Part shown: in pieces, positions 50 through 54,250 of the stretch
Position numbering within the stretch: the stretch's first letter is position 1
Layout: every line of letters starts with the position of its first letter
NCBI GenBank assembly: GCA_000091205.1
Contig: AP006488.2
Source of the DNA: Cyanidioschyzon merolae
Lineage: Eukaryota
Strand: one strand, 5' to 3'
DNA length: 64,000 nucleotides
Made by a program: the position numbers and the translations under genes
The notes under the pieces: generated by a model
The model's database searches: none
Told to the model about the DNA's origin: nothing
The model's input: the letters and a program-made list of their open reading frames with translations, nothing else

Positions 50-1531
50 TTGGTGCAGGTGCCTCTGCGGTATTCGATTGCCAGCTTCTGTGCGACTCGT
101 TCTGTTCGTCGAGAACGTGACCTGGATGAGAAGTCTGGACTACCACAGTTGCGTGAAAACGTCTTTCTTGACCTGTGGTGCATGCATGAAAAGTGTATTC
201 AGGGGTATCATGTACGTCGCGAACACTTGGCGCCAGCAGGAGAAGCACCCCCGGCCGAGTTGTCGCTCGAGAGCTCCAATCATGACGAGAACTATAATGA
301 TCTTGATGACCCTGTTCATGATGATGATGATGATCGTCATCGTGCTGTTGGTGCTGCTGGTGACGATGATGATCATGGTGATGCTGCCGGAAACCGGGTG
401 CACGGGCGACCTGTGCTGGACGTTTCAGCTTCGCAGCCACTCGAGGGGTTGATGTCGACGTCGCCGCCGGTGCTGGTGACCCACACCCATACCCTGTACG
501 AGGCTTTTCGGAAGATCGCTCCGCAACTGAAGCAGCGAAGCTCAAGCTCCAGAAAGCACTCGGCCATTGGCGTGGGCAGCGCTGCCTCAAGCTCTCCGAG
601 TCCAAATGCTGGCGACGCTGCCTCAAGTTTGCCAGTCGATGTTCGAACACTTGCTCCAGAGAGCAATGGTGAAGCTGGCGCTGCTACGCCAAAGCGCGGA
701 GACTTTCCAGATCAGGCGACGAGCGCTGGAATGCCTTTGTTCACGGAGAAGCGCATTCTGGAACTTGAAGCGCGACTGACGCGTATAGAGCAGCTCCTGC
801 ATGAACTCATGGGCACGGTGAACCACACCAGGTCGGAGACAGCCTCGACGATGCACGGTCTTCTCCAACAGATTGCCAAAGAGCACCTCGTGCCGGCTCT
901 GATGCGCACCAGTGCCGAGACGGCAACATCGCTCTCTCGAGCGCTCGACGAGGCCATACGGGTTCGCTTCAAGCCGGTTACCGAACAGCTGGAACAAGCG
1001 TTACAGCGGACACTGCAATGGCCCACGTCAGGACCTGTGTCTTCTGCTGGAATGACGGCGACGACACTGGTGCCCACCGGGTACACGGCACCGACACCGA
1101 CACCACGAGAGCAGATCCTGCGATGGCTGCATCAACAACCGATGCCGGACGAGGATCGAGCGTTTCACGCAGCGCTCAATCTAAGTGATCTGGAGACGTT
1201 GGTCTGGCTCTGCAAGCAGTGCTCTCCGGAGCTTGTCTGCGAGAAGCTCTCCCAGCCTGTGCTCCTCTCTCTGGTCCAGCAGTTAGGTTTCGATTTGCGG
1301 ACCCATCTCGAATGCAAGTTATCGTATTTAGAGGAAGCGGTGCCGCTGATTCAACCGAAAGATCCGATTATCGCTCGGCATATGGAACCAACCATGCGTC
1401 AGCTTGTGCATAATCTAGATGAACAGGTTTTACATGCTGGTGAAGAGGTTGCACCTGCGCTTCGGACGCGGGCTCGTTTGCTGCGCAAGGTCGCCACGCT
1501 GTTGCTCCTTTCACCATCGCCAGCGAGTTAA
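50..1531 (+). CDS. Hypothetical protein with an Asp-rich acidic N-terminal region and a helical/coiled-coil C-terminal half. Possibly 5'-partial: the ORF opens with TTG 50 nt from the window edge and the first ATG is about 44 codons in.
   Basis: Uninterrupted 493-codon ORF with coding-like GC3 composition and no recognisable family motif. Two roughly 37-bp direct repeats follow its stop. Confidence 0.4.
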   Translation: MVQVPLRYSIASFCATRSVRRERDLDEKSGLPQLRENVFLDLWCMHEKCIQGYHVRREHLAPAGEAPPAELSLESSNHDENYNDLDDPVHDDDDDRHRAVGAAGDDDDHGDAAGNRVHGRPVLDVSASQPLEGLMSTSPPVLVTHTHTLYEAFRKIAPQLKQRSSSSRKHSAIGVGSAASSSPSPNAGDAASSLPVDVRTLAPESNGEAGAATPKRGDFPDQATSAGMPLFTEKRILELEARLTRIEQLLHELMGTVNHTRSETASTMHGLLQQIAKEHLVPALMRTSAETATSLSRALDEAIRVRFKPVTEQLEQALQRTLQWPTSGPVSSAGMTATTLVPTGYTAPTPTPREQILRWLHQQPMPDEDRAFHAALNLSDLETLVWLCKQCSPELVCEKLSQPVLLSLVQQLGFDLRTHLECKLSYLEEAVPLIQPKDPIIARHMEPTMRQLVHNLDEQVLHAGEEVAPALRTRARLLRKVATLLLLSPSPAS

Positions 1532-1535
1532 AGGA

Positions 1536-1660
1536 CTTGAGTGGAAGTACGCTTTAGGTCCGATCGTAAATTTCCTATTGCGCCTTGTTCTAATGTAAGT
1601 GACACAAAGGACTTGAGAAGAGGTACGGTTTAGGTCTGATCGGAGATATCCCGTGGCAGA
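1536..1660. repeat. Pair of roughly 37-bp direct repeats (aaggacttgag..gtacg.tttaggtc.gatcg) separated by about 45 bp, immediately 3' of the first ORF.
   Basis: Direct visual alignment of the two copies. Confidence 0.6.
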
Positions 1661-4600
1661 CTTGCCTTCGACAATATCCTGGAACGCATCGTGCGACGAG
1701 CGCCATACCGCGCACTACGATGTTCGCAGAGCAGTGGACCCTGGAACGCATGTACCAGTACTTCTTGATTCGGCTTTCTGTCTCGCTGGTATACGAGAAA
1801 AGGGAGTGTCATTCGCAGATCGAAGAAAGGTCGCGGAAAGACTTGATGGTACAACTGCGGCCTTGCGAAAGAAACACAGGCAAACTTCAAGTTACCAATT
1901 CAACGTTCAGCAGGTAGATAAGCAATGCTTATCGTAGCAGCTATTCGGCAAGAAAAGCAACCAAACGGGAATGCCCCGAACATTATCCGCATGACTGTTT
2001 CCTCGTCGATCCATGGTTGGCGGCACATTCCCTGCGAAAAACTGCACGAGAGGCAATAGGATATGGAGTTTCCGTATCTTAGATACGAACAAATATGAAG
2101 ACGCACGGAGGGTAAAGGAAATAACGTGCGTCCAGATTGGTTTCATACTAACTTGCAAACGCTCAGAAAAAGAGCGATGCTTGTTCATCTCACTCGTTGA
2201 GCCTGCATTCGAAGGAAATGCTAGACATGTCCATGGGAACTCAAGTAGCGGCAAACATGTGTTTCTAAATAAAAGACAAGCGACAGTGAAGACTGCATCA
2301 GTCCTAGCGTCAATGGGATCATATGGTTGCCTCTATATCGCCACACGGATCGGAATGTTCAACAAATTATGCTTCTTCATCGGAGCATTTCTTGGCTTCT
2401 TCTTTGCACAGCTTTCTCACCTGATCTCTGATAAGATGGTGTTTTATCGCGCCAAAGCAGTCGTGGAGCATGCAGCTGCTACTGATATTGAGCTGCTCTT
2501 CATGCCAGCCTATTCTATCCAGTTCAGTCGAGTCAAAAGCGTGTTCTCTGTTGTCGAACGCCATCATTTCGCGCAGAGATCAATGGACTGGTCGTTTGAA
2601 TCCGTGACACCTTTATTCGACATGTCGACCTCTGTTGTCATTAACCCTTAAATGCTCCGTTGTGTCTTTGCTCATGCACCAAAGAGAGTGCGATGCAACC
2701 GTGCTGCCCGTGGGCGTACTCGCGGCCGAGAAGGCAATGGGAATGTACTTGAGGCATCATTGGTACGTTCTAGAAATGACGAGTTTGTTTTCGAGTTTCC
2801 TCCCGGAGCTTCTTCATCCCGAAGGAGGCACCGAATATGGACTATACCGTGCACAACAATGCAATGCAGCTATGAAAATAAGAAGACGAAGAAAAGCATG
2901 AAATTTCAGAGGAAATGACGAACAGGAATCGGAACGAATACCTATCGCAATGGAAAGAACCGTTTGAATCCGTGTTCACGGCCACGGCACAATGACATAT
3001 CGACGACAAGAATCTTTCAGACTGAGAGCTATGCGACACCATCCAGGTTTGCGCAGCTTCCCTCGCCTTGATGCACGTCATCGAGCAACTTTTCACAAGA
3101 GATTACGACGCGTGACTGCCACCTGTCCACATTCTACCGGAATTCTAGGATCGTACTTTCGTACGAGTACGCAAACGATGCTCGGGGCAGAAGCTGTAGT
3201 ACAGCCTGACCGTAGGATCAGGGATTCGTAGACACGCTTCCCAGAGTACGAGTTCTTGCCGCCGCGCCACGTCAGTTAATCTCGCTTCTACAGCTCGGTG
3301 CCAAAAAGTAGCAAACGAACCTAAAAAACCACGGGCTGGTCAATTTCGAGCGCCTCATGAGTCGCACCCCGTGCGCATTCGAGTTTCATCTTACCTACCC
3401 AGAAAAGTCGACGTTGATGGAAGAAATTCATGGGGCGAAGATCATGGCGATTGATCAGCGAAATGGTCCAAGAGCAGAGGATGGTACATAGCTCTGGTGA
3501 GGTGTCCCAACGAGAGCAAGAGTCGCTTCAGAGCGTCCAGGCTAACCCTGTTGCGCTTCGTCTTGGGCCGTCGGGCGTTGTATCCTGTAAATAAGTGAAA
3601 CGTAACGCATGTCTTGCTTGCATCAAGCGCTGCGACGTCATTCTGAACAGATCCCACCGGAGCACGGCAGACATACTACCCGAATCCGAGTACGCTCGCC
3701 TCCTCAAGGTTCTGTCCGAACATGTCCCAGCAGGTGAGACTGAGACCCATCGCATTGCAGCAGATATGTCTATCGTATACGATATGGTCTTGTCGTGATC
3801 TTCGGCGCGTATCTGCATGCAGATATGAAGCAGTGAACCAGCACTGCGAAGGGCATTGGCGAAGCTCATGCAACGACTCGCGTTTACAGGCAGAAATTGG
3901 AAAGAGGCTGACATTGCAATGGAACCCCACCGAGTATCCATCCGCATGCACTTTGCCAAACCGAGGCCTGAGTCGAGCATCGAGATTCGTTGTCAGCCGT
4001 AAAAGGTAGATGAAGAGAAAGGCTTCACGGCGGACGTGGATCTCGGGTTGAAGGCCATCATGGTCGTCGCCGTACCTCTGGATCAAGAGGACAGCACCGA
4101 TGGCCGCAGCGGTAAGCAGAGGAAGCTGCTCAAAATCATCCAGGGCTCTATTGGATCCAGTGTCGGGCACAGTGGACGCCAGCAGGCGAGCCACCAGGTG
4201 AAATGGTGGTGTCAGGACGCCTCGCGACGCTCTGACTACGCGATCGATCCCAGCTGGATATGTTGTGTGCTTCCAACTCAGAGCGTACATGAGCGTCCAA
4301 ATAACGAGCGCCGATGATCTTCAGCGGATGTCCATGAGATCGTCCAGCGTTCGCCAACGGTTTCTATTGTCAAGCGGCATACATCTGCCATCTTGTTCCG
4401 TTCGCTGGAAAAATGGCATGTGGGACATGTCGTGTAGTATCACGGGAATCTGTTTCGTTGGATGAGCTGTTGCACACAAAGGCTGCATTGCCGCTCCTTC
4501 GACGAGTGCGTACGCTAACTGCATGAATCGATTCTCTCGCAGGCCCATCGATGTGTGCGGGACGCCATACCCACATATAATGGGTACGAGAATGCCCGTT

Positions 4601-5286: not shown

Positions 5287-7614
5287 TCAAGTCGTCGCTA
5301 CAGTGGCGCGGCGTAGATGCTCAAGGAATATTTCCATGGAAACATCATCGGTATAGATGAACTCGGCAGCGGCACTGCCGCTAAGTACATCGACATTACC
5401 GCTTGTGTGGGTAGCACTGGGGTTCAGTTTCGCGAGCAGAAAACGCGCTTGGGATCCGTACTGGTCCGACTCTACCCAGCGCGGATACGGGAAACGCGCT
5501 GCAATGCACGCTGCCGCATCTCGCCGCGGTATTTCCAGCAGCTCCGCCAAGTTTCGATAATTTGGCTGCAAATGATAGCCTGCTTTGCGCCACTGGGCAA
5601 CGGTGTCACCATAAAAGATAACGATGTAGAAGAAGGCATCGAGAAAGAGGACAACGTCGGGCCGAACGCTGGCCACATCGAGCAGCACCGGTGTAGGCGC
5701 GCTCTCCAACGAGTACTGAATCAGGCTGGGTTGAATCATGAGCATACCATCCGCGGTACTCACCCGACACAAATGCGAACGAAAGAACGCAGACTCATCG
5801 GGTGAGGTATTGAACGTTTGCAGTAACGCGCTCCGTCGCAAATGATACATGAACTGAGGATAGAATGACATGCTGGGGCCAAGTCGGAACGTCTCGGGCC
5901 GTTCCTTTTGGTAGTCGCCAAAGCGCGCACATAATCGAATCAAAAGCCGATCCAGCCATCGGAGGATATCGAAGGCCTCTTCGTTTTCCGTACGGAAAGC
6001 AGCGAGACGCGCCATGGTGACGGCGGCTGCCTCTTGATCGAAACCCGCTGCGAGGGTCACGAGGTCGTTGCCGTCGCACCAGCGCCCAGCATGCGTCGCT
6101 ACCCGCATTCGGAACTCGCCCGAGCTGTGTTGGTAAGTTGTTCGAAACTGTATGTACCGATAGTGATTCTCGGGAATCCCATTCGACTGCTGGTTCACAA
6201 CGTCGAAGAAAACGCTGAGGCTCGTGTCCGGCGAGATGCTCCCAATTCGCCATGCACAGGTACCCCCAATACCAATTTCCGTGTCCGTGGAGACGCTGGG
6301 TCCTTTCTTCTCCAGGGAAGCCGAGGGTCCGATCACGCCGGCAATCTTGAACTCCCGAGAGCAGTCGACCTCGAGTGTTGCCAAGAAATGGCGCTTAAGA
6401 TGTCCATTTTCATCGCATTCAAAGAACTTCTCGAACGAACGCTTGAACATGTCGTGCTCAAAGGATTCAGCCATTACGAAAACGCCTCCGGTGCGATCCA
6501 CGCACGCTTTCATCTCATAGAAACCGACCTGATCCAGGGAACATCCGAATACGGAGAGCGCGTGCCCGGCGTTCACCAGGCGCGTGGCTACCTCATCGTA
6601 GTGCTTGAGCGCCTTTTTCAAATGCGGTGCATTGTCTTTCTCAATATCGATATGAGAGCGCAGCTCTTCATCTAGCTTTGGACCAACGATGGTGCCGGGA
6701 CCCTCGGTGCAAGGCCCGCCTTGCAACAGGCAAATATGTGCTCCGTAGCCCCTGTAGGTGCATTCCAGGAGAGCCGCAGCCGCTGCGAGTGCGGCACCCG
6801 TACAGCGCTTTGGCCGTTCGTCGGCCGGCACTGGCCAGGCGTCACGCTGAAGGCCCTCCAGAAGCGTTGCCATCATATACTCGCATTCTTGTATGGGTTG
6901 GAGAAAGCGGTCTGGAGGTGCCAGTTTTGAATGAGCGCCCGCTGCTGTCGCATCAGCACGCTGTTTGGCGGCAGCGCTAGCTCCAGCGCCAGCAGCTGCA
7001 GAGGCGCCGCCCAGTCCAAGCAACGGCTGCAGTGACGCTGCATCATAGGATTTGTTCCCTCGAAGGATGTACGATCGAAAGCCTTCAGTGAACCCAATCT
7101 CATGAACCTGCAGGTGCTGCCCGTACGTAATCAGGCCCACTGTTGTTCCTGGCGGTAGCAGCGAAAGCGCCTTGAGGAGGTACTCCTTCACCACCGTGAA
7201 CTGTTTCTCGGGCACTGTCGTGTCCAGTACAAAGAGAAATGCCGGCGGTGGGGCCGGTGGCCTATTCAAACGATACTCTACAACTGTGTATTCCGGAATG
7301 AGCTCAGATGGCAGCTGGTTATCCGGGATGCTCGCATACTGTGGAGGGAGCTGGTTGCGCTGAAACGTAAACGGACAAACCCACATCCGCGCGTTGATGT
7401 CCACGCTACAGTACGGGTTGAGCACCGTACCCTCCCGCGACGTCACCGGCGGGTACGGCAGCGGAGGGGGCATGTTTGGTAACGGTCGCAACGGTGTAAA
7501 AAGACACGCAAACGGAAGCACGCACTGGCTAGCTGCGGCCTTGGTCGTTGGCCAGAACAGCCACGTCCAGCGCGTGCCGTCCACTTCCTCCAGTTGCGCG
7601 AAGTCTATAGACAT
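5287..7614 (-). CDS. SEC23: COPII coat GTPase-activating protein Sec23
   Basis: 775-aa ORF with a true ATG. The N-terminus 'MSIDFAQLEEVDGTRWTWLFWPTTKAAASQCVLPFACLFTPL...ARMWVCPFTFQRNQLPPQY' aligns to the Sec23 N-terminus and Zn-finger region. Length matches Sec23 (about 765 aa). Confidence 0.9.
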   Translation of the reverse strand: MSIDFAQLEEVDGTRWTWLFWPTTKAAASQCVLPFACLFTPLRPLPNMPPPLPYPPVTSREGTVLNPYCSVDINARMWVCPFTFQRNQLPPQYASIPDNQLPSELIPEYTVVEYRLNRPPAPPPAFLFVLDTTVPEKQFTVVKEYLLKALSLLPPGTTVGLITYGQHLQVHEIGFTEGFRSYILRGNKSYDAASLQPLLGLGGASAAAGAGASAAAKQRADATAAGAHSKLAPPDRFLQPIQECEYMMATLLEGLQRDAWPVPADERPKRCTGAALAAAAALLECTYRGYGAHICLLQGGPCTEGPGTIVGPKLDEELRSHIDIEKDNAPHLKKALKHYDEVATRLVNAGHALSVFGCSLDQVGFYEMKACVDRTGGVFVMAESFEHDMFKRSFEKFFECDENGHLKRHFLATLEVDCSREFKIAGVIGPSASLEKKGPSVSTDTEIGIGGTCAWRIGSISPDTSLSVFFDVVNQQSNGIPENHYRYIQFRTTYQHSSGEFRMRVATHAGRWCDGNDLVTLAAGFDQEAAAVTMARLAAFRTENEEAFDILRWLDRLLIRLCARFGDYQKERPETFRLGPSMSFYPQFMYHLRRSALLQTFNTSPDESAFFRSHLCRVSTADGMLMIQPSLIQYSLESAPTPVLLDVASVRPDVVLFLDAFFYIVIFYGDTVAQWRKAGYHLQPNYRNLAELLEIPRRDAAACIAARFPYPRWVESDQYGSQARFLLAKLNPSATHTSGNVDVLSGSAAAEFIYTDDVSMEIFLEHLRRATVATT

Positions 7615-9796
7615 GACCTCCAGAACGTCTCAAACTACGCACTGTTTACCAGGTAGGGTCAAACGCCCCCACGATCAGGCCCGAAAGACTCTGCCTAAGC
7701 GCTCGTGTTCGGCTCTGCGCTCTCCCGAACGTCGAGCGAATGACCTGTTGCGTAACTGCTGCCGCGGCGGCGGCAGCAGAGGCGAATGATGAGACCCAGC
7801 GCTTACCGAGTGCGCACTATAGGAAAAGGAACAGAAACGAACCTCTAACTAGCAAAGAGATCACATTTTCTTTCCTTCTCTATGATAAACATTAAAAGGG
7901 GGAACATGTTTTCGATATTTTAGAACGTTTACGTTATCGGCGGTAGGTTCCGCGAGCCGGACAAGACTGTCTGGGCTAGTGTATCACGCTCGTCCCGGTG
8001 GCGGGTGCTGTAGTGCGGTCTGAGCTGCAACTCGTCCAAACTGCAGTTTATTCTGGGACTTGATAGATTAGATCTCTTCCGGGTGTCGCCCTCGTTGCGG
8101 TGGACTCCACGTATATCGCTTTGCGCTGTCGCGTGCAGTGGGTTTGTCTGCGGAGCTTGCTGGCTCCGAGAATGATCATATACTCCGACTCTGTGTCAGG
8201 TGAAGCATTCCTCGATCCGACGCCCTCAGTAGTATGGCAACGCCGTTCTGTCTCTGTTATGCATCGGCATCAGCGGATTAGAGGGTAAGGCGGGTGCATC
8301 AACGCATGCACCCGACGAATGACAGGAAGCACGAGACGAGTAGTACATCCGAAAGGAAGTATACGTAATGGAATCTGGAGTTAGAATGCAGCATGATGGA
8401 TGCTTTCGCTGAATCCGATACCCATGCATAGCGCAACCTCGGATCCATTGTCAATGTGAGTGTTTTTCCATCGGAAAAATGAAGCACGTAGCTCTATCGT
8501 ACAAATTGTAACGATGTTCAAGTCGTAGAAAAGTACATTGTTTGTCCTCAATTGTGTTTCAACCTTCACACTAATGTATTCAAGTGCTTTTTCGCGCGTA
8601 ATAGCTGTCCCATCCAAAGCGGTTTCGGTTTTTATATTGAAAAAGGAAAGTTACGGAAGGGGAATTGGAGGATCCTGGGCGCCAGTGTCGCCGGCAGCCC
8701 GAAAAAACGAAGAACAGTGCCAAGTCCAAAGGAACAAGAGAAGAAGAAGAAGAAGAAGAAGTAAAAGCGGGAGGCCCTACGTCAAAGGCTACACAAAAGA
8801 CGACGGTACGACGAGATGGCGGTGAAAGCCTGTCTTCTTCAACATACCAAGGATCCGTACAGGGAAAACGTTCGAGAGGCAATCTGGAACCGTGTCGAGC
8901 CGAACTCAAGCGGTGTCCGTGACGCTTCCCAAGGAATGGCGCATTTCCTAAGGGAATGGTATCACGACGTTACGGACACCAAAACAGTCGAGGTTCTGGA
9001 AGAAATTTTCAACAAAACCTTTATTCATCACCGGATGCTTGGCACCGGGGAAACGTCTAGGTGAAATGAGCGAGTTCATGCCCTCCACAAAATTTACGCC
9101 GAATTCCGCTTCGACGGTACTCGATACAGGGGGGGATTCGAATATTTACACCTACGGGGCGATGAAGTACCTCACCAGTCTAAAGAACCATTTAACAATG
9201 AACCCCAAAAACTTCGATCGCCAGCATGAAAAGGAGATCGAATTCATCGACGAGACGACATCACTCAGGGGCATGAACGAGGATTCCGTCATCCGTACGG
9301 TTATACAAGAGCATCGTGCTGTCTTGGGACTGGCGAATCCAGCAGAAAAGATATCAGAGTGGAAAGAAGATAAGGAACGATACTATCGCCTCATCCTACG
9401 GTATTTCGTGTTTTTTGGCCGAGAACTCGAACGCAAGGCAGAGATGAAGCTGAGTGGGGAAAAAATGAAGAATGGGAGAGACGAAAGGCTGCGCTTCTGG
9501 GTAAGAGCTTAAACATCGTTCCGTTGTGAAACATCAAGTCACATTTTAAGACTATCGACTGCAGAGTCCTTCATGACATCATGAAGGAGATCTGTCCGGA
9601 GTTCGATGAACGGAAGACAGAGTTCACCGCTGAAAACCGGGAGACGTACTTGAAGAGTATCCTCAATTTCAAACGTCTCAAAGTAAGCAAGAAAAAGAAA
9701 TTCACTGGGATGATCGAAACCGATGGAGTATCTATATGTGTACACGATCGGCGGTTGAAGGTGGATCGTCCAGTCCTGCCTTCAGCCTCGCCCGTG

Positions 9797-10106
9797 ACGA
9801 AGCATGAAGGTGAGAAGGAGGCGGATCCTGCGATGCAGGAGTTGGAGGATAACGACCTTGGCGTTGACGTGGCGAAGCATGAAGAAAAGGAGAAGGCTGT
9901 TCCTGTGACTCAGGAGATAGAGCATAACGACCTTGTCGTTGACGTGACGAAGGATGAAGAAAAGAAAGAGGCGGATCCTGTGATGCAGGAGATGGAGGGG
10001 AACGACCTTGTCGTAGGCGCGGCGAATCATGAAGATGAGAAGGAAGCGAATCCTACCACGCAGAAAGCGCATGAGAACGACTTTGTAGTTGGCGCGGACC
10101 CCGGAA
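9797..10106 (+). repeat. Coding minisatellite inside Fanzor-like copy A. About 60 bp (20-aa) unit '[24 protein letters not shown]', roughly 4 tandem copies directly N-terminal to RuvC-I. The unit is a degenerate duplication of the RuvC-I strand.
   Basis: Protein-level tandem repeats 'NDLGVDVAKHEE / NDLVVDVTKDEE / NDLVVGAANHED / NDFVVGADPGSTN'. Copy B has 1 unit and copy D has 3. Confidence 0.7.
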
Positions 10107-10929
10107 GCACAAATATCATAACCATCGCTGCTCCCAAGCTCGCGGAAGATGGTATTGACGGGAACTTGCGTCAGAAATATATGCGTCTTCTGCGGCTCTC
10201 GAGAGCGAGATACTATCGACAATCGGGAATCATGAATGCGAGGAAGAAAATCGTTACGTGGAATGTAGGAATGAAAGAGCACCTGGAAGCTCTGAGTGAG
10301 GTGACGAGCCGAGGAGCGGACTTTCGAGCTTTTCGGTGATTCATGGAAGTTCGCGTTGCGCATTGGGATGCGCTATGGGAGGAGTATACCAAGCCCCGGT
10401 GGGCTCGTCTGCGTATGAATCGATACGGTGGGAAGCAGCGGGCGTTCGCGAATTTTTCAATCAGCCGAGCGCCTTGAAGGAGGATCAAAGTCAGAGGCTC
10501 GTAGTAGCGTATGGGGCACGGAGCTGGAAGACCAAAAAAGGGTGTACGCCAGCTCCAACGACAAGGGTGTACAAGGAGTGCGCACGGCGTTTCGTTACAA
10601 TACCTGTAGATGAGTTTCGAACATTGTATACACACCATGAACTGGGTTGTACACTTCAGCGAGTGGAGATGGAAAAGTGCCACAGGAGCCCTGAGGAAAT
10701 AGCAAAATACGGACCGTTGACGGAGGAGCAAATGGAAAGGAGGGTGAACGTTCGTGGATTACTTGCACTAGTAAGTACAACCAGTGATGGCAAGAAACGT
10801 ATGGAGTTTGTGAATCGTGACTTTAATGCCGCAATCAATGTACGGAGATGTGCGGTGCTGGAGAATAGACTTCCAGAGTCGACAAGAGTGAACTTTGTTG
10901 GACAACCTCTCAAAGTCGAATTATATGAG

Positions 10930-11075
10930 AAAAAGTTGGAAGCAGTCGTAGGTGGCCGGTCGAGAAACGGCGGGAAGGCGTCTGCACATCAGCTGGACAC
11001 GTTATGTCTAGGGCGCGGTTTTCCCGCCACTACGGTACACTGTCGGCGACGTCGTTCGACTTTCGAACGGCGTTT
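10930..11075 (+). ncRNA. Candidate omegaRNA/fRNA-like 3' scaffold of copy A. It is conserved with copy D through a terminal hairpin (cgttcg-acttt-cgaacg, extendable to about 10 bp) and diverges immediately after.
   Basis: A:D nucleotide identity across the C-terminal coding and 3' region ends at about 11075, and a palindrome sits at the boundary. By analogy to TnpB/Fanzor, whose guide RNA derives from the element's 3' end. No expression data. Confidence 0.3.
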
Positions 11076-11086
11076 GGAGGCGCGGC

Positions 11087-11098
11087 TTTGGCGGGAAA
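11087..11098 (+). promoter_or_regulatory. Consensus E2F site TTTGGCGGGAAA about 70 bp upstream of the MCM5 ATG, in the unique flank between the element A 3' end and MCM5.
   Basis: Exact match to the canonical E2F motif TTTSSCGC. MCM5 is a classical E2F target in animals and plants. Confidence 0.35.
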
Positions 11099-11167
11099 CG
11101 CTTGGTGGGCGCTATCTGCTCCAAACGCTCTGTGTTCAACGTCATACGGTTTACGTTTTGACGCTTC

Positions 11168-13474
11168 ATGGATTGGCACGCGGCTCCAGTTTACTATACT
11201 GATCAGGGTGTTGGAGTACCAGGTGCTGAAGAGCAAAGTGGAAATGTTTCTATCCAAGAACGGCGAATCATTGAGTTCTTGCTGCAGTTTCGCTCAGCTC
11301 CAAACGTGTTCCCTTATCGCGATCAGCTTGTGCGCCAGCTGCACGCTCGCAAGCACTGGATTCAGATCAAGATAGAGGACGTGTACGCCTTTGATGAAGA
11401 ACTGGCTGGGTATATTCGCCAAGCGCCTAACGAATGGATAGAGCGCTTGGAGCAAGCAGTCGATCGGGTGGTACGTCGGCTGCGGCTGCCGCTGGACCAC
11501 GAGATAGGCGGTGTTTCGGTGCAGGTGTTGCTGCAGTCCCAGGAGAACGCATTTCCGTTGAGGGAACTCCAGTCCGATCAGCTGGGGCGCCTTGTGCGTG
11601 TACAAGGCATTGTTATTTCCGCTTCAAAAGTACGCGCGAAAGCGCAGGTCGTCTGGTTACGTTGCCAGCACTGTGACTACCGAAAGATGATACGTGCTTC
11701 AGTGGGATTCGGTGGTTTCCAGGTGCCCCGCCAATGCGATCGTGTGACGGAAATGCGTTGCCCTCTGGACTCGTATGAGGTGATGCCGCATGAAAGCGTG
11801 TTTGTTGATCACCAGACAGTGAAGCTGCAGGAGCTGCCCGAGTCGGTACCCACTGGGGAGGTCCCTCGATCGCTCCTGCTCGTTCTCGAGCGGAATCTGA
11901 TTGATAGAGTAGCTCCTGGTGAGCGCGTCAGCGCTGTCGGTGTTTACTCGACATACGCCAGCACTCGTGATCGGAGCAGTCGTTCTGTGGCAGCTAACAT
12001 TGCCACAAGGGCTAGCGGACCAGACCTTGTAGCAGCGGTGAGAACTCCGTATATCCGAGTCCTCGGCATTGATGCTACGCAGGAAAGACGTGACCGTCAT
12101 CCAGGCTTTACCCCGGAGGAAGAGGAAGCCATGCGCAGCTTGAGTCGACTGCCAAACGTGTACGAAGTCTTGGCGGCGAGCATTGCCCCAGAAATCTGGG
12201 GTCTCTCCGATCCAAAACGTGCGGTATTGTGCCAACTATTCGGTGGCTCTCGTAAGACGCTTCCAGACGGAATGAGAATTCGAGGCGATATCAATGTGCT
12301 TCTTCTGGGCGATCCGTCTACCGCAAAATCACAGCTGCTCAAGTTTGCGGAGAAGGTCGCACCGGTCTCCGTGTATACGAGCGGCAAAGGCTCTTCCGCC
12401 GCAGGGCTGACCGCCTCTGTTATTCGAGACGCCACGCATGGTGAATTCCATCTCGAAGGCGGTGCGATGGTGCTAGCTGACGGTGGTATCGTCTGCATTG
12501 ACGAGTTTGACAAGATGCGCCTCGCAGACCGTGTCGCCATCCACGAGGCCATGGAGCAGCAGACCATTTCCATCGCCAAGGCCGGGATCACCACCGTGCT
12601 GAACTCGCGCACGGCAGTTTTGGCGGCAGCGAATCCTCTTTTTGGTTCGTTTGACGATACGCGCACTGTAGCGGATCAGATGGAGTTTGCATCCACGATT
12701 CTTTCTCGTTTCGACCTCATATTTCTGGTCCGCGACGTGCGCAATGATGAACGTGATCGAACGATTGCCCGACATGTACTAGCGCTGCATCAACGGGGCC
12801 ACAGTCTGCGCCCGCAGGGCTCTGGACTCGATTCGGCTGGTGATATCAGCGATTCAGGAATGCTGTCTTTGTCACCGAACGGTGCTAGCGAGTTCACCTC
12901 CAGCCAGATGCTGAACGCCGTTGGTCTTGTCCCGATCGACAAGTTGCGTCGCTATGTCGCCTACGCCAGACGCCGTTGCCGACCACGCCTCTCCGCAGAG
13001 GCTGCTGACCTACTACGAACAGCGTACGTGGCAGTACGCCAGGAGCTGCGCGATCGTACGGCAGATGGACCGACTCCTGTACCGATTGCGGTACGCCAGC
13101 TGGAATCCCTCATCCGCTTGACCGAGGCGTTGGCCAAGATGCGCCTGAGCGATCTTGCATCAGCTGCTGATGCCGAAGAGGCACTGCGGCTTTTCCGAGT
13201 CGCCACCATGGCCGCAGCGCACGCAGGTGCGCTACCTCCTGGTGCCTTTGAGGGTACCCTGAGCGGGGAATTTCTCATTGAGGTTCAAGCAGCCGAAGCA
13301 GCAATTCGGCGGCGCATCGCCATTGGTTCCATGCTCGCTTTGAACCGGCTGGTACGTGAACTCACCCAGCAGCATCTGTCTGCAGCGGCGACCCAGCGGG
13401 CGATCCAGATCATGCTCGGGCGACAGGAGCTCGAATGGCGTCGACAACGGACAGTACTGTGCCGTTTACGGTGA
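11168..13474 (+). CDS. MCM5: DNA replication licensing factor MCM5
   Basis: 768 aa with a true ATG. Walker A 'GDINVLLLGDPSTAKSQLLKF'. 'IDEFDKM' and the arginine-finger region. 'AIHEAMEQQTISIAKAGITTVLNSRTAVLAAANP' nearly identical to MCM5. N-terminus 'PVYYTD...IIEFLLQFR' aligns to the MCM5 N-terminus. Confidence 0.9.
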   Translation: MDWHAAPVYYTDQGVGVPGAEEQSGNVSIQERRIIEFLLQFRSAPNVFPYRDQLVRQLHARKHWIQIKIEDVYAFDEELAGYIRQAPNEWIERLEQAVDRVVRRLRLPLDHEIGGVSVQVLLQSQENAFPLRELQSDQLGRLVRVQGIVISASKVRAKAQVVWLRCQHCDYRKMIRASVGFGGFQVPRQCDRVTEMRCPLDSYEVMPHESVFVDHQTVKLQELPESVPTGEVPRSLLLVLERNLIDRVAPGERVSAVGVYSTYASTRDRSSRSVAANIATRASGPDLVAAVRTPYIRVLGIDATQERRDRHPGFTPEEEEAMRSLSRLPNVYEVLAASIAPEIWGLSDPKRAVLCQLFGGSRKTLPDGMRIRGDINVLLLGDPSTAKSQLLKFAEKVAPVSVYTSGKGSSAAGLTASVIRDATHGEFHLEGGAMVLADGGIVCIDEFDKMRLADRVAIHEAMEQQTISIAKAGITTVLNSRTAVLAAANPLFGSFDDTRTVADQMEFASTILSRFDLIFLVRDVRNDERDRTIARHVLALHQRGHSLRPQGSGLDSAGDISDSGMLSLSPNGASEFTSSQMLNAVGLVPIDKLRRYVAYARRRCRPRLSAEAADLLRTAYVAVRQELRDRTADGPTPVPIAVRQLESLIRLTEALAKMRLSDLASAADAEEALRLFRVATMAAAHAGALPPGAFEGTLSGEFLIEVQAAEAAIRRRIAIGSMLALNRLVRELTQQHLSAAATQRAIQIMLGRQELEWRRQRTVLCRLR

Positions 13475-30632: not shown

Positions 30633-30985
30633 GGGAATGCTATGTGCAGTGCAAAGATCCGGGCTCATAGATTCGTAGATCGTTGAATGCTATGTGCAGT
30701 GCAAAGATCCGGGCTCATAGATTCGTAGATCGTTGAATGCTATGTGCAGTGCAAAGATCCGGGCTCATAGATTCGTAGATCGTTGAATGCTATGTGCAGT
30801 GCAAAGATCCGGGCTCATAGATTCGTAGATGGTTGAATGCTATGTGCAGTGCAAAGATCCGGGCTCATAGATTCGTAGATGGTTGAATGCTATGTGCAGT
30901 GCAAAGATCCGGGCTCATAGATTCTTAGATGGTTGAATGCTATGTGCAGTGCAAAGATCCGGGCTCATAGATTCTTAGATGGTTC
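30633..30985. repeat. 50-bp tandem repeat, 7 copies (tgaatgctatgtgcagtgcaaagatccgggctcatagattcgtagatcgt), with terminal variants. It lies 80-430 bp upstream of the GatB ATG.
   Basis: Direct reading shows near-identical units. The last three carry 'ggt' or 'ctta' variants. Confidence 0.9.
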
Positions 30986-38851: not shown

Positions 38852-39200
38852 ACGTATACACGGATACGTATACACGGATACGTATACACGGATACGTATA
38901 CACGGATACGTATACACGGATACGTATACACGGATACGTATACACGCATACGTATACACGGATAAGTATACACGGATACGTATACACGGATACGTATACA
39001 CGGATAAGTATACACGGATACGTATACACGGATACGTATACACGGATAAGTATACACGGATAAGTATACACGGATAAGTATACACGGATACGTATACACG
39101 GATACGTATACACGGATACGTATACACGGATAAGTATACACGGATACGTATACACGGATAAGTATACACGCATACGTACACACGGATATGCATATATACA
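38852..39200. repeat. 14-bp minisatellite (ACGGATACGTATAC with AAG/GCA variants), about 25 copies, 200 bp upstream of the Rab1 ATG.
   Basis: Direct reading. It generates the multi-frame artifact ORFs 38627-39269. Confidence 0.9.
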
Positions 39201-45594: not shown

Positions 45595-48250
45595 AGTCGC
45601 GCCGGTGTTGAATGACCACCGCACGTCTTTCAAAGGAGAAACGTTGCCGCCGTCGGTATACAGTAGAAGCGAGGAACACGCTCTAGACAAAAAGTCTCCA
45701 ACTGATGTGCAGACGCCTCCCAGTCTTTCTGGACCGGGCACCCACTACAGCTTTCAACCTTGTCTCATATGGTTCTACATTGAGAGGTTGTCCAACAAAA
45801 TTCCCTCTTGTTGACTCTGAAGGTCTCGTCTCCATCACCGCGCATCTCCTTATATTGATAGCGGCGTTAAAGTCTCTGTTCACAAACTCCATACGTTTCT
45901 TGTCATTGATTGTACTTACTGATGCAAGTAGCCCTCGCACTTTCGCCCTCCTTTGCATTTGCTCTTCCGTCCGCGGTGCGTGCTTTTTTATATCTTCAGG
46001 GCTCCGCTGGCACTTTTCCATATCGACCCTTTGAAGTGTACACCCCCGTTCATGGTGTGTATACGATGTTCGGAACTTACCGACAGGTATTGTAACATAC
46101 CGGTGTGCGCACTCCTCGTACGCTCTTGTCGTTGGAGCCGGTCTACACACATTTTTGGGTCTTCCATCGCCCTGCTCCGCAGGCTACTACGAGCCCTCGA
46201 GCCTTGTCCTCTTTGAGGGCACTCAACTGATTGAAAAAGTTCACGAATACACGCTGCTTACCACAATACAGATTCATTCGCAGACGAGCCCGCCGGGGCT
46301 TGGTATACTCCTCCCACAACGGATCCGAATGGGCAACACGAACTTCCATGGATTTCCGAAAAACTCCACAGTCCGCGCCTCGGCGCGTCACCTCGCTCAA
46401 AGCTTCCAGGTGATCCTTCATTCCTGCATTCCACGTACCTATTTTCTTCCTCGCATTCATTATACTGGATTCTCGATAGTATCTCGTTCTCGGGAACCTC
46501 AAAAGACGCATGTCTTTCTGACGTAAACTACCATCAGTACCATTTTCCGAACGCTTCGGTGCTGCGATTCTTATGATATACGTATTCCGAGGGTCCGCGC
46601 CAACGCCAAAGTCGTTATCCTGCACTTTCTGTGTCGCACGATCCGCCTCCTTCACATCTTCATGGTTCGCCGAGGACGGACCAGGACGATCTCTCTTCAA
46701 CCGCGGATAGAGTACACACATGGCTACTCCATCGGTTTCGATGATCCCAGTGAACAACTTTTGCTTGCTCACTTTGAGAAGTTTGAAATCGAAGTTGTTC
46801 TTCCAGTGCGTCTCCTGGGTATCACCGGTGAACTCTGTCTTCCTTACGATGAACTCTGGACTGATCTCCCTCATGATGCCGTAAAGGACGCCGGAGTCGA
46901 TAGTCACAAAATGTGACTTGATGTTGCATATTGGAACCCCGTTGAAGCGCTTCCCCATTAGAAAAGCCTTCCGTCTCTCCCACTCTTCATTTTTTTCCTC
47001 ACTCAGCTTCACCTCTGCCTTGCGTTCGAGCCCTCGGTCCAGAGACACGAAATACAGCAGAATGAGGCGATAGTATCTTTCCTTATCTTTTTTTCAACTC
47101 TGATATCTTGTCGGTTTGGTTCGCCAACCCCAAGACTGCATGGTGCTCTTCTATAAGCACACGGATTACAGAAGCTATATTCGTTCCCCTGTGTGACGCC
47201 TTCTTGTCGACAAATTCGATCTCATCTTCATGTTGCGATCGTTCATGATGCCGTTGATAATCGCCCATATTTCTTTGCGAGAGATGTTCGGGTACAGTGC
47301 AAACACGGCGCGTACCATAAAACGTTCGAGATTCAAAGTCAAATGGCTCTTCAGGTTCGTGATGTACTTTATCGCCCCGTATGTGTACATATGCGAGTCA
47401 CCCTTGTATCGATTACACTCAAAGCTGCAAAAGGGATGTTTTTCGTGGAGAGCATGCACCCGATCATTTTTCCTTCACGTCCCCGCTGTACCAAGCATCA
47501 TGTGACGAATAAACGTCTTGTCGAAGAACTCGCCCGGAATCTCGACGGTTGCCATGTGCGTCACGTTTTCGTACATCTCCCTCGCCCAATGCATCAGTCC
47601 TGACGAAGCCTTGACAATACTCTTGGAGTACGAGTCGACGCAGTTTTCGATAGCGTCTCGCAGCTTTTCCCTGTAGGGATCCTTGATTTGTCCAAGAAGA
47701 GAGGTTTTCACCACTATCTCGTGGTACAGTTGTCGTTCTTGCAGCCTTCGACATAGGGCCTTCCCCTTTGCTTCTTTTTCTCTTCCTTTTCTTCTGGACT
47801 CGGCACTGTATTTGTTTCTCCGGCAGCCGGCGACAATGGCGCTCCAGGATCGTGGACTTGCTTTTTCATAGCTTTCCTTTTTTGGGGTTTTTCGAAAAAG
47901 AACGCTCTTTGAACCCTTCTGTTATATACTGCGAAAAAGCACTTGACTAGACATGTTTGAGGGCTGAAACACAAATGAACTGAAAAATTGTACTTTGCTT
48001 CGACTCCAACGCAAATACAACTTTTTCCGGTAGAACAACACGTCAACGAATGGTCAGGACTACGTTTCTCTTCCACTGTGAAAAGCGCGTTGTATTTCAT
48101 GCCTTTCAAATATGGAGGTGCACAACTCGACAGAATTATTTAGAACAAAGAACAGATACTCACGATACACGACAAACGATGTAACGATTTCATTCCCCCT
48201 CTACGCTAAACGTTGACAGGGGAAGAAGCTTTCCGCATGTTAGAATGTTT
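45595..48250 (-). mobile_element. Fanzor/TnpB-like element copy B (degenerate, at least 4 frame breaks). Its 3' end lies about 190 bp upstream of the PepN start.
   Basis: Homologous to A and D over the leader, coding region and 3' tail. Its 3'-tail hairpin is degraded. Confidence 0.55.
45683..47869 (-). pseudogene. Fanzor/TnpB-like nuclease pseudogene (copy B). Pieces: 47714-48109, 47475-47714, 47175-47459, 47083-47268, 46143-47048, 45683-46150.
   Basis: RuvC-I '[18 protein letters not shown]'. RuvC-III 'RMEFVNRDFNAAINIRRCAV'. Copy-specific frame breaks. Confidence 0.6.
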
Positions 48251-48419
48251 GCGCTCCAGGCGGAAGGCCCCGTGAGCCGGACGAGTCTTCTTGGTAATTG
48301 CGTCATGGCCCCCCCAGTGGCAGGTGCTTTAGTGATATCTGACCAACTCATCCCCGAAGCGGTTTATTCCGGCATTAAGGGTGCTCAGGCAGCGTCTGCA
48401 CGTCGCCCTGGTCGCAGCG

Positions 48420-49235
48420 CATTCGATGGTACGCCAACGCTGTTCTGTCTCTGTACAGCATCCGCTCCAGCGGTACAAGCGCTGCGGCGGGTGCTCACTG
48501 CAGGCTCGGCGCACGAACGAACGCACAAATCGACCAGTCTAGCGGAAAGGGAGTCTAAGTAATGGAACCTGGAAGTAGGGTGCACCATGATGGGCGCTTT
48601 CCCGAAAGCCGATATCCATCCCGCAATCCGTGATCCACGGTCAACGGATAGGTTTTCTCAGGCCAGAAAAAGAACAAGACACGACGCTCGTGCCGCCGTT
48701 CAAGGGAAACGCCATCCTGATCAATAGCGTGTTGTTCAGCTGTGAAAGTCAGACTTCCGTTCAGGCCGTAGCCAAGCACAGTCTTTCAGTTCCTGTTTGT
48801 TTCGAACTTCAAACAAGTCTAGTCAAGTGTTTTGTCGCAGTATGTAACAGAAGCGTTCACAGAGCGTTCTTTCCAAAAAAACAAAAAAAGAATAGTTATG
48901 AAAAAGCAAGTCGACGATCCTGGAGGCCCAGGATCGCCGGCTGCCAGAAAAAAACAAAAAACATTGCCGAGTCCAGTAGAAAAGGAAGAGAAAAAAAGCA
49001 AAGGGGGAGGCCCTATGTCGATCGCGGCAACAAAGTCGACTGTACAACGGGATGGTGGTGAAAGCCTGTCTTCTTACACATCTCAAAGATCCGTACAAGG
49101 AAAAGTTGCGAGACGCTATCAGAAACCATGTCGACTCGTACTCCAAGAGTATTGTAAAGGCGTCTTCCGGACTGATGCATTGGGCGAGGGAGATGTACGA
49201 AGACGTGACGCACATGGAAACAGTCGAGACAATAT
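48420..49235 (+). mobile_element. Fanzor/TnpB-like element copy C: 5' fragment only (leader plus the first roughly 110 codons), head-to-head with copy B.
   Basis: ATG at about 48897 'MKKQVDDPGGPGSPAARKK...RGRPYV...MVVKACLLTHLKDPYKEKLRDAI...VTHMETVE'. Homology is lost after about 49235. Confidence 0.5.
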
Positions 49236-51294: not shown

Positions 51295-54250
51295 AGCGCC
51301 GCCTCACGCACCATCAACGCCGTTCGAAAGTCGAACGACGCCAACGGCGTACAGTAGTGGCGAACGCGCCCCAGACAAGAAGACGCCATTTGACGTACAG
51401 ACGCTCCACGTCTTTCTGGACCGGCCACGCACTACAGCTTCCAACTTTTTCTCATGTAGTTCGACTTTGAGAGGTTGTCCAACAAAATTCCCTCTTGTTG
51501 ACTCTGAAGGTCTCGTCTCCATCACCGCGCATCTCCTTATATTGATAGCGGCGTTAAAGTCTCTGTTCACAAACTCCATACGTTTCTTGTCATTGATTGT
51601 ACTTACTGATGCAAGTAGCCCTCGCACTTTCGCCCTCCTTTGCATTTGCTCTTCCGTCCGCGGTGCGTGCTTTTTTATATCTTCAGGGCTCCGCTGGCAC
51701 TTTTCCATATCGACCCTTTGAAGTGTACACCCCCGTTCATGGTGTGTATACGATGTTCGGAACTTACCGACAGGTATTGTAACATACCGGTGTGCGCACT
51801 CCTCGTACGCTCTTGTCGTTGGAGCCGGTGTACACACTTTTTGGGTCTTCCATCGCCCTGCTCCGCAGGCTACTACGAGCCCTCGAGCCTTGTCCTCTTT
51901 GAGGGCACTCAACTGATTGAAAAAGTTCACGAATACACGCTGCTTACCACAATACAGATTCATTCGCAGACGAGCCCGCCGGGGCTTGGTATACTCCTCC
52001 CACAACGGATCCGAATGGGCAACACGAACTTCCATGGATTTCCGAAAAACTCCACAGTCCGCGCCTCGGCTCGTCACCTCGCTCAAAGCTTCCAGGTGAT
52101 CCTTCATTCCTGCATTCCATGTACCTATTTTGTTCCTCGCATTCGTTATGCCAGATTCTCTACAGTATCTCGTTCTCGGGAACCTCAAAAGGCGCATGTC
52201 TTTCTGACGTAAACTACCATCAGTACCATTTTCCGAACGCTTCGGTGCTGCGATTCTTATGATATTTGTGTGTGTAGGGTCAGTGCCAACGACATGGTCG
52301 TTATCCTGCACTTTCTGTGTCGCAGGATCCTCCTCTTTGTATTCTTCATGCTCCGCCGCGTCAACGACAAGGTCGTTATCCTCCACTTCCTGCGTCGCAG
52401 GATCCGCCTCTTTCTCAACTTCATGCTTCGCCGTGCCAACGACAAGGTCGTTATCCTCCACATTCTTCGTCTCAGTATCCGCCCGATCCTTTTCTTCACC
52501 CTTCGAGAGGAACGAAGCCGAGGGCGGAACTGGACGATCATTCTTCAGCCGCCCGATAATGTACACACAAGGCTACTCCATCGGTTTCGATCATCCCATT
52601 GAATACCTTTTGTTTGCTGACTTTGAGCCGTTTGAAATCGAAGACACTCTTCCAGTACGTGTCCCGGTTTCTCGCCGGTGAAGTCCTCCCTGCTGACAAT
52701 GTACTCCGGACTGATCTCCTTCATAATGCCGTGAAGGATTCTGGGGACGATAGTCACGAAATATGCCTTGCTATTGCACATGGGAACCACGTCGAAACGC
52801 TTTCGCATTAGGACAGCCTTCCGTCTCTCCGACTCTTCATTTTTTCCCTCACTCAGCTTCACCTCTGCCTTGCGTTCGAGTTCACGGTCCAGAAACACGG
52901 AATACCGCAGAATGAGGCGATAGTATCTTTCCTTATCTTTTTTCAGCTCTGGTACCCTGTTTGTTGGATTCGCCAACCCCAGTACCGCACGGTGCTCTTG
53001 TATACCCGCACGGAATACAGAAGCTTCATTCGCGCTCTCGTTTGACTCCTTCTTGTCCACGAATTCGACCTCATCTTCATGCTTGCGATCGTTCGTGATG
53101 TCGTTGATAATCGCCAATTTTCCATTACAAGAGATGCCCGGGTACAGCGCAAAGACGGCACGTGTCATGAAACGTTCGAGGTTCATCGTCAAATGGTTCA
53201 TCAGTTCCGTGAGCTACTTCATCGCTCCGTATGCATAAATATCCTGGTCACCCCTGCTTCGAGTACCCTCGAACCTGTAAAAGGGATGTTCTTCGTGGAG
53301 GGCGTGAATCCGCTATTTTCACTCCGTGTTTCCCCTGTGCCAAGCATTAGGTTACGAATAAAGGTCTTGTCGAAAAACTCGTCCGGAACCGCGACTGTTT
53401 CCATGTGCGTCACGTTTTCGTTCATCTTCATCACCAAATGCATTAGCCCTGACGACGCCTTTCTAATACTCATGGAGTACGAATCGACACGATTTCTGAT
53501 GGCGTCTCGCAATTTTTCCTCGTACGTATCCGTGATATGTCCGAAAAGACAGGCTATCACCACCGTATCGTCGTACATTCGTCTTTCTTGCGGCCCCTGA
53601 CTTCGGGCCTCCTGCCGTTTCTTTCTTGTCCTCTCCTTTTCCTCTGGACTAGACACTGCTTTTTGCTTTTCTCTGGCAGCCGGCGACACTTGGCGAACAG
53701 GATCTCTGACTTGCATATCCATAGCTTCTCCTTGGATTATTCATTTTTTCAATATAAACGCACTCCGATGCTCCTGCTGAAAACTGCGAAAAAGCATTCG
53801 ATGACGCTCACCTGAAGTTGGAACTAAAGTGAGATGATAGTCCATGAGTAGAAAGAGCAGGTTTGCCAGCAGGAGGACGCGGATTATGAATCATTTCATT
53901 AATAGACCCCCAACGTGGGGGCAGATCTACACTCATTTCTGAAAAAACGAGGACCGACCCTCTAAATCGGGAGAAAAGACTAGGCTTTGGGTCGCTTCTC
54001 ACTTTCGTCAATACCAGTCTTGAGGGGCATGATGTTTGACTACTTCCCTTGTCTCTCTCATATGCGCCTGTAGCAACGCAGAATTCTCTTGTCCCTCTAG
54101 CTCCGTTTTCAGAAGTAGAAGGATGTTGATGGCAGTGTCAAAGCCACCATTTCACTGCTTCCGGCTGCTGCTCACGCACTTAATGCTCGAACGGGAGATG
54201 CGATCTATGCTTTGCTTGCCATTTGCGTCTTCCTCGCGTAAAGTCGCGGT
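51295..54250 (-). mobile_element. Fanzor/TnpB-like element copy D (best preserved; about 2 frame breaks). Its 3' end lies about 80 bp upstream of the LPAAT start.
   Basis: Longest intact segment: ORF 51304-52566 spans RuvC-I to RuvC-III. Leader homology to A and B extends to at least 54020. Confidence 0.6.
51304..53722 (-). pseudogene. Fanzor/TnpB-like nuclease, likely a pseudogene (copy D). Pieces: 53219-53722, 52545-53201, 51304-52566.
   Basis: RuvC-I '[17 protein letters not shown]'. Zn-finger-like 'YEECAHRYVTIPVGKFRTSYTHHERGC..MEKCQRS'. RuvC-III 'RMEFVNRDFNAAINIRRCAV'. The RuvC-II position reads 'GLVVACGAGRWK'. Confidence 0.6.

Follow-up and report, generated by a model that had tools for sequence, protein, structure and literature searches.

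Copies of the Fanzor1 transposon CMe-1A of Cyanidioschyzon merolae carry a 75-bp coding minisatellite directly upstream of the RuvC-I motif of the nuclease gene. Here, we report its structure in a 64,000-nucleotide stretch of the C. merolae genome (GenBank assembly GCA_000091205.1, contig AP006488.2; hereafter the window), in which three long copies of the element (A, B, and D) hold 4, 1, and 3 in-frame units, and we compare it with metagenomic relatives. The array is best read (probability, about 0.7) as a coding minisatellite that sits in a permissive loop on the surface of a Fanzor1 nuclease, tolerated there as a length-variable acidic spacer. The multi-unit proteins probably are or were active, and the array would have no function of its own.

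CMe-1A is the one Fanzor1 transposon that Bao and Jurka described in C. merolae (2013, Mob DNA 4:12; PMC3627910). Its 3169-bp consensus encodes a 734-amino-acid (aa) protein, and its genomic copies, about 150 in number, each match that consensus at about 80% identity (PMC3627910). The element lacks terminal inverted repeats and target-site duplications, has its 5' 635 bp in common with TE-N2_CMe, and includes some old copies that, according to Bao and Jurka, still code for intact proteins (PMC3627910). Consensus DNA and protein, which carry one unit, were taken from the supplementary files of that paper (PMC3627910) and the DNA was aligned with the window by blastn. Window segments were 78-88% identical to the consensus, with copies A, B, and D at 80-88% over most of their length.

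The repeat array and the nuclease fold

Tandem Repeats Finder placed a repeat at 9793-10054 in copy A (period 75, 3.5 copies, 79% matches, score 328) and at 52283-52483 in copy D (period 75, 2.7 copies, 84% matches, score 290); self-BLAST of 8001-11400 returned the 75-bp offsets again, along with two diverged minus-strand copies of the surrounding 2.5 kb. The units lie head to tail and fall within the 10- to 100-bp range of a minisatellite, and 75 bp is a multiple of three. An earlier note on this DNA had counted four units in copy A, three in D, and one in B, and in-frame translation agreed with it; its unit length of about 60 bp (about 20 aa) was too short, the unit being 75 bp (25 aa).

The array of copy A (9794..10093, plus strand) consists of four in-frame 25-codon units, translated as VTKHEGEKEADPAMQELEDNDLGVD (u1, 9794-9868), VAKHEEKEKAVPVTQEIEHNDLVVD (u2, 9869-9943), VTKDEEKKEADPVMQEMEGNDLVVG (u3, 9944-10018), and AANHEDEKEANPTTQKAHENDFVVG (u4, 10019-10093). 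Directly after u4 stands the RuvC-I motif ADPGSTN (10094..10114; Asp codon, 10097-10099), located by motif and family profile. The linker is anchored upstream by the ETDG motif of the WED beta-hairpin (9716..9727; counterpart of strands 351-358 and 362-370 in the P0353 model described below), and downstream follow, on the same strand, RuvC-II (VDEFRT, 10606..10623, Glu kept; aligned to LDEYKTS of SpuFz1, with E541) and RuvC-III (NRDFNAAINV, 10813..10842; aligned to NRD of SpuFz1, with D606). On the minus strand, copy B has a single unit (46599..46673) followed by ADPRNTY (46578-46598), and copy D has three (52285..52509, composed of 52509-52435, 52434-52360, and 52359-52285) followed by TDPTHTN (52264-52284). 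Nucleotide identity among the units of copy A is 65-84%; they are old, distinguishable copies and no low-complexity coincidence.

Each unit encodes about 20 acidic linker residues and the first four residues of RuvC beta-1 (F/L-V-V-G/D; FVVG), the fifth being the residue after the unit, and ends two residues before the catalytic Asp. The duplication of the RuvC-I strand just N-terminal to the motif, as the earlier note had it, is in frame, adjoins the motif, and takes in the start of beta-1; the catalytic motif itself is not duplicated, and only four of the six beta-1 residues (FVVGAD) are. For comparison, 36 non-redundant arrays were gathered: those of the window, that of the published consensus, and those of metagenomic relatives in the CMe-1 subfamily, most of which come from short-read assemblies. 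The reading frame was kept through the 102 units of these arrays, with a unit of 25 aa and rare 24- or 26-aa exceptions. At the 66 internal junctions, the position equivalent to the catalytic Asp was occupied by Ala (30), Thr (29), Val (4), Glu (2), or Met (1) and never by Asp.

Family assignment rested on a broad profile and on predicted structure. With single open reading frames (ORFs), full-length relatives, or a narrow 17-sequence profile as query, Pfam, NCBIfam, and the PDB gave no meaningful match (best, angiogenin and ribonuclease at an E value of about 1), and the CMe-1 sequence shows no obvious CxxC zinc-ribbon pairs, as might be expected if the protein were no RuvC nuclease and ADPG were not RuvC-I. 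We consider this scarcely credible. A search with the repeat-free full-length relative P0117 (699 aa) returned 82 relatives, mostly of 600-700 aa, some of which carry a precomputed PF07282 OrfB_Zn_ribbon annotation, and a profile search of 1.84 billion cluster representatives returned 2036 relatives at an E value of <=0.001. A profile built from 72 of the 82 P0117 relatives matched three solved Fanzor1 proteins, PpFz1 (9cf0, E=3.6e-20), SpuFz1 (8gkh, 1.3e-13), and GtFz1 (9cer, 2e-3), with 'vvgiDPGr' aligned on DPG/DPN, 'vdEFRTS' on LDEYKTS, and 'NRDlNAA' on NRD (SpuFz1, PpFz1, and GtFz1), and the element was itself published as Fanzor1 (PMC3627910). The fold search agreed: the AlphaFold2 model of P0117 (predicted local distance difference test [pLDDT], 87.6; predicted template modelling [pTM] score, 0.84) had SpuFz as its top Foldseek match (E=1e-17; template modelling [TM] score, 0.62/0.72), and the REC/WED/RuvC/TNB fold was found in the models of both P0117 and the four-unit relative P0353, for each of which SpuFz structures ranked first. 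In SpuFz1, D383/N385, E541, and D606 coordinate two magnesium ions (PMC10432273). On the profile alignment with the solved proteins and the fold match of P0117, the Asp of ADPG is the RuvC-I catalytic residue, counterpart of SpuFz1 D383, in keeping with the TnpB/Fanzor-type RuvC nuclease that the earlier note had recognized. The family consensus, P0353, the six-unit relative P0384, and copy A (ADPG, VDEFRT, and NRDFNAA) all have the Asp/Glu/Asp triad; in copies B and D, the Glu of RuvC-II is replaced (VGKFRT at 46067-46084 and at 51754-51771, respectively; minus strand).

The WED hairpin of the P0117 model (strands 375-382 and 386-394, with the TDG motif) leads into a 20-residue loop (pLDDT <50 at 400-406), right after which comes RuvC beta-1 (416-421, FVMSCD), ending in the catalytic Asp; the CMe-1 unit is equivalent to this loop together with the first four beta-1 residues. 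The P0353 model (88-sequence alignment; pLDDT, 82.4) has no secondary structure at 377-469, which holds units 1-3 and the first half of unit 4 (pLDDT, 25-39), and its beta-1 (478-484, DFIVGAD) is supplied by the last unit only. The rest of the model has a pLDDT of >90 in most blocks and matches SpuFz (E=2e-15) with a target-normalised TM score of 0.71 (0.72 for repeat-free P0117); the SpuFz-like fold is kept with the expanded array, and the linker from WED to RuvC is longer, as had been anticipated. The description of the upstream units as decoys held insofar as the catalytic Asp is absent at 66/66 internal junctions; nothing points to competition between the pseudo-strands and the true strand, and in the model the former are disordered. 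A consensus unit has a net charge of about -7; the mean is -13.5 for arrays and 0.0 for the corresponding loop of other family members.

Unit number and inheritance among relatives

Arrays held one unit in 10 cases, two in 6, three in 6, four in 9, five in 4, and six in 1 (n = 36), and over this series the distance from TDG to the catalytic Asp was 48/52, 73/77, 102, 123/127, 148/152, and 177 residues. Outside the subfamily, the loop is unrepeated, measuring 31-59 residues in 156/165 proteins, with a few unrelated long insertions; a single unit, as in the published consensus, is therefore taken as the ancestral state. Five proteins of the wider Fanzor1 family (P0289, P0228, P0303, P0213, and P0255) have 73- to 142-aa insertions in the same WED-to-RuvC-I loop, two of them (P0303 and P0213) with an internal AAKKPKS/VAKKPNS duplication. 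This loop looks prone to insertion in the family at large.

When each unit was matched to its closest counterpart in another array, the two fell in the same position class (first, internal, or last) in 70% of cases, compared with a mean of 34% and a maximum of 50% for shuffled labels (300 shuffles); single-unit copies resemble last units. Because first and last units are positionally homologous across paralogs, the arrays were inherited, copied by transposition from multi-unit source elements, and not made afresh in each copy. Among RuvC-domain pairs (31 proteins), unit number was shared in 24/27 pairs at >=93% identity and in 56/438 (about 13%) below 93%.

Most of the unit-number variation seen lies between paralogs. 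At the locus of copy A, the window and three independent metagenome assemblies (L001, L013, and L014; 98-98.5% identity) all have four units, with no 75-bp indel. Another locus was found in two Joint Genome Institute (JGI) metagenomes (L018 and L019) with the same MFS transporter and DEAD_2 helicase neighbours and 99.1-99.4% identity over 10.6 kb, with five units in L018 and three in L019; the 147-bp difference consists of two extra exact copies of a neighbouring unit, one with a 3-bp deletion, in short-read contigs. Either the array gained or lost units there very recently, or short-read assembly collapsed it. Compared with its paralog L020, L021 has an additional unit, a hybrid with the head of unit 1 and the tail of unit 2, which is what out-of-register exchange would be expected to produce. 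Taken at face value, these comparisons suggest that the array changes over several percent sequence divergence, with occasional recent events.

A hypervariable minisatellite was not supported, given the invariant copy A locus at 98-98.5% identity and unit numbers that are usually shared above 93% RuvC identity. A microhomology origin of the first duplication was unconvincing, since the TGGCG sequences at consensus positions 2119 and 2189 are 70 bp apart, not 75, and slippage driven by DNA secondary structure was unsupported (array folding z = -1.35 versus shuffles). P0005 (four units) and P0008 (three units) are 99.6% identical downstream of the array and visibly far more diverged upstream, a mosaic with its breakpoint inside the repeat array. 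At 10659-11013, downstream of its DEAD_2 helicase gene, L019 also has about three tandem copies of a unit of about 119 bp, which gene calling reported as three ORFs of 38 aa.

As a tolerated spacer, the array would have the following history. The ancestral loop would have run from the WED beta-hairpin (ETDG...) to RuvC beta-1 (FVVGAD), and its last 25 codons would have been tandemly duplicated, an expansion that probably arose once, in the CMe-1 lineage. Only the unit abutting ADPG would supply the real beta-1 and present the catalytic Asp, the upstream units forming a disordered, strongly acidic loop (net charge of about -7 per unit) with both ends anchored on folded protein. Since the loop ends are anchored and only the last unit must supply beta-1, the fold would tolerate any unit number. 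Lineages with the nuclease domain under purifying selection would have carried multi-unit arrays and spread them by transposition, with unit number continuing to shift by out-of-register recombination or replication slippage between units; copies A, B, and D, with 4, 1, and 3 units, would be dead relics of this process.

Selection, rival explanations, and known systems

Two multi-unit relatives have long uninterrupted frames: 752 codons and four units in P0353 (L017, JGI 3300050362), and 716 codons and six units in P0384. The motifs GADPG, VDEFRTS, and NRDFNAA are preserved in each. P0360, from the same locus and the same 90%-identity cluster as P0353, has its ATG in frame, but the frame ends at another A-run. 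Across P0353, P0360, and P0361 (one 90%-identity cluster, different JGI samples; L017 3937-4001), frames break at two A-runs, after the ATG and at 'WKTQK', and combining them would yield a four-unit frame of about 773 open codons. The A-run indels of P0353 and P0360 are either homopolymer sequencing errors or signs of a locus only just decaying by real slippage. At L017 6256-6258, a CAA-to-TAA change ends the frame after '...NFIG', and P0019, P0031, and P0034 end at the same position ('...NFFG'); the early stop may be an inherited shorter C-terminus of one sub-lineage, not independent decay.

The ratio of nonsynonymous to synonymous substitution rates (dN/dS; Nei-Gojobori) was 0.29 for the RuvC domain when pooled over copy pairs. 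Against the consensus, it was 0.16 for RuvC in both four-unit copies examined (copy A of the window and L017). The N-terminal half gave 0.59. Such low values argue that much of the divergence of the copies, multi-unit ones included, arose under selection for the nuclease, which agrees with the published remark that some old CMe-1A copies are intact (PMC3627910). For the units themselves, dN/dS was 0.93-1.05 unit against unit and 0.80 between copies, which suggests that their amino acid sequence is under little or no constraint and close to neutral.

That the units are a product of pseudogene decay only, expanded by slippage after each copy had died, never part of a working protein and irrelevant to Fanzor biology, is unlikely. 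Copies A, B, and D are indeed all pseudogenes, unit dN/dS is about 1, and the most recent expansion seen (L018) lies in a copy with an N-terminally truncated ORF; however, decay after death would hardly leave unit position classes homologous across paralogs (70% versus 34% shuffled), the 752- and 716-codon frames with four and six units and all catalytic motifs, a RuvC dN/dS of 0.16 in four-unit copies, or arrays that stay in frame with 25-aa units and rare 24/26-aa variants. That the unit numbers are assembly artefacts of collapse or expansion is very unlikely. The earlier note had named this as what might overturn the repeat, and for the window arrays it was ruled out: their units are 65-84% identical, so that reads place uniquely, and the orthologous loci L001, L013, and L014, from three independent assemblies, all have the same four units. 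The 10D genome is reportedly finished to completion, by Nozaki and colleagues in 2007. Only for L018/L019, with extra units almost identical and collapsible by short reads, does an artefact have anything to commend it.

A functional, length-tunable module is improbable, somewhat more so than decay. The acidic loop beside the RuvC active site would then mimic a nucleic acid, auto-inhibit the enzyme, or dock a host factor, or else the pseudo-beta-1 strands would vie with the genuine one and inactivate the nuclease; in that doubtful case, Asp-less strands could swap into the RuvC sheet to give inactive conformers, and unit number would set nuclease activity for each transposon lineage. Such a role would suit the charge of the loop (about -7 per consensus unit, -13.5 per array, versus 0.0 in other members) and its direct connection to the strand bearing the catalytic Asp, and it has a precedent in the FRI domain of PpFz1, a lineage-specific Fanzor1 insertion that binds cyclophilin (PMC11423790). 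It sits poorly with near-neutral substitutions in the units, unit numbers that range freely from 1 to 6 among close relatives, a model with no ordered contact, and a fold shared by one-unit and repeat-free relatives.

Several points weigh against a tolerated spacer in an active nuclease. The window holds three long copies (A, B, and D) and fragment C out of about 150 genomic CMe-1A copies, and the tabulation of 1-6 units in 36 arrays covers three of them. As to expanded units in an intact copy, a point raised by the earlier note, the database proteins included no multi-unit gene that was strictly intact. P0353/P0360 (one locus) and P0384 come closest, with their motifs kept; in P0353, a 1-nucleotide change in an A-run directly behind the ATG shifts the frame, and a CAA codon turned TAA ends it 35 codons short of the consensus stop, whereas P0384 is without its first 138 or so codons in frame. 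The near-identity of the extra L018/L019 units means that short-read collapse could explain the difference between them. A dN/dS near 1 on 25-codon units is noisy, and a function based on charge or length, independent of sequence, would leave no dN/dS signal.

The published CMe-1A is the same element in the same host, and the window copies are old, at about 80% identity to the consensus as published (PMC3627910); that consensus has a single unit, whereas the window and relatives have 1-6. This variation is apparently undescribed: the word 'tandem' is absent from the main text of PMC3627910, and none of the matches listed for Fanzor plus tandem repeat in the literature deals with the feature, by title and abstract. 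With element, family, and host already published, the repeat is apparently a small, undescribed feature that adds a detail, not a new system. The solved proteins SpuFz1 (8gkh, 9ceu-9cez), GtFz1 (9cer), and PpFz1 (9cf0-9cf3) have the same fold, domain order, and aligned D/E/D motifs, with the same succession of WED hairpin, loop, and RuvC beta-1. Their loop is single and unrepeated (about 30-60 residues), whereas the CMe-1 loop is repeated, is predicted to be disordered, and takes in part of a core strand. The FRI insertion of PpFz1 is folded, measures about 100 aa, and lies elsewhere in RuvC (PMC11423790), unlike the CMe-1 insertion in the WED-to-RuvC-I loop. Bacterial TnpB/Cas12 RuvC nucleases share the RuvC core, with weaker, remote fold matches to Cas12f and TnpB (TM score, about 0.2-0.3).

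Coding minisatellites (in-frame variable-number tandem repeats [VNTRs]) occur in eukaryotic genes, such as the yeast cell-wall adhesin genes. They likewise have head-to-tail units in multiples of 3 bp, resized by unequal recombination or slippage, with hybrid units and with edges stabler than internal units. Unlike adhesin-type VNTRs, the CMe-1 array lies in a transposon-encoded nuclease, copies part of a catalytic-domain beta-strand, and varies mainly among paralogous copies.

An extra 125 residues or more can apparently be accommodated in the WED-to-RuvC-I loop of Fanzor1 without loss of long ORFs or of selection on the nuclease, and a natural insertion-tolerant site beside RuvC-I would be useful for placing tags or effector domains in compact genome editors. 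In the very small, nearly repeat-free C. merolae genome, unit number and hybrid units would provide a simple marker with which to follow descent, gene conversion, and recombination in this family of roughly 150 old CMe-1A copies. Control of the nuclease by the loop, if real, would make the loop a rare example of a length-polymorphic regulatory element within a transposon-encoded nuclease.

CMe-1A copies and other features of the window

Copy A (8488..11072, plus strand) corresponds to consensus 740-3169 and is a pseudogene: its start codon is gone, 88 bp are deleted, and the frame shifts at least three times (tblastn frames 2/3/2/2/1 and alignment). Abutting it is an inverted TE-N2_CMe-like 5' segment (7799..8473, minus strand; consensus 1-663, 78% identity over 677 bp by blastn). 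Copy B (45624..48417, minus strand; consensus 366-3169) and copy D (51318..53832, minus strand; consensus 800-3169), the latter in four reading-frame pieces, are likewise pseudogenes by blastn, tblastn frames, and, for D, ORFs. Each of the three is split over several reading frames, so none can encode the enzyme. The earlier note had recognized neither this decay, nor the missing RuvC-II Glu of B and D, nor the element as CMe-1A. Fragment C (48674..49228, plus strand; consensus 683-1238 by blastn) is the 5' part of another copy, without the repeat region, and stands head-to-head with copy B. The inverted 1-663 segment at copy A and fragment C facing copy B are local layouts that differ from the published consensus structure.

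Over some 600 bp of the RuvC half, copies B (45830-46400) and D (51520-52086) share 99-100% identity, compared with about 80% elsewhere, and the Glu-to-Lys change in RuvC-II is common to both; the near-identical stretch looks like a gene-conversion tract between paralogs 5.7 kb apart. The antisense ORF at 52259..52681 (plus strand), which the earlier note had put down to the array of copy D, exists in the ORF list, opposite the Fanzor frame, as an antisense reading of the repeat, and there was no coding evidence for it. Two further plus-strand antisense ORFs lie on the same array (52270-52602 and 52317-52559).

The flanking genes are intronless and eukaryotic: MCM5 (11168-13474) and Sec23 (5287-7614) are exact matches to the C. 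merolae 10D proteins BAM79525.1 and BAM79524.1, respectively, which gives the Fanzor1 element its expected eukaryotic host. Rfam and tRNA scans of the window had no matches, with no CMe-1A omega-RNA model built. Two further tandem arrays were found, at 30635-30984 (50 bp x 7.0, 99% matches) and at 38852-39188 (14 bp x 24.1, 95%), and beside the second, at 39348-39463, lies a weak match to the CMe-1A/TE-N2 5' region.

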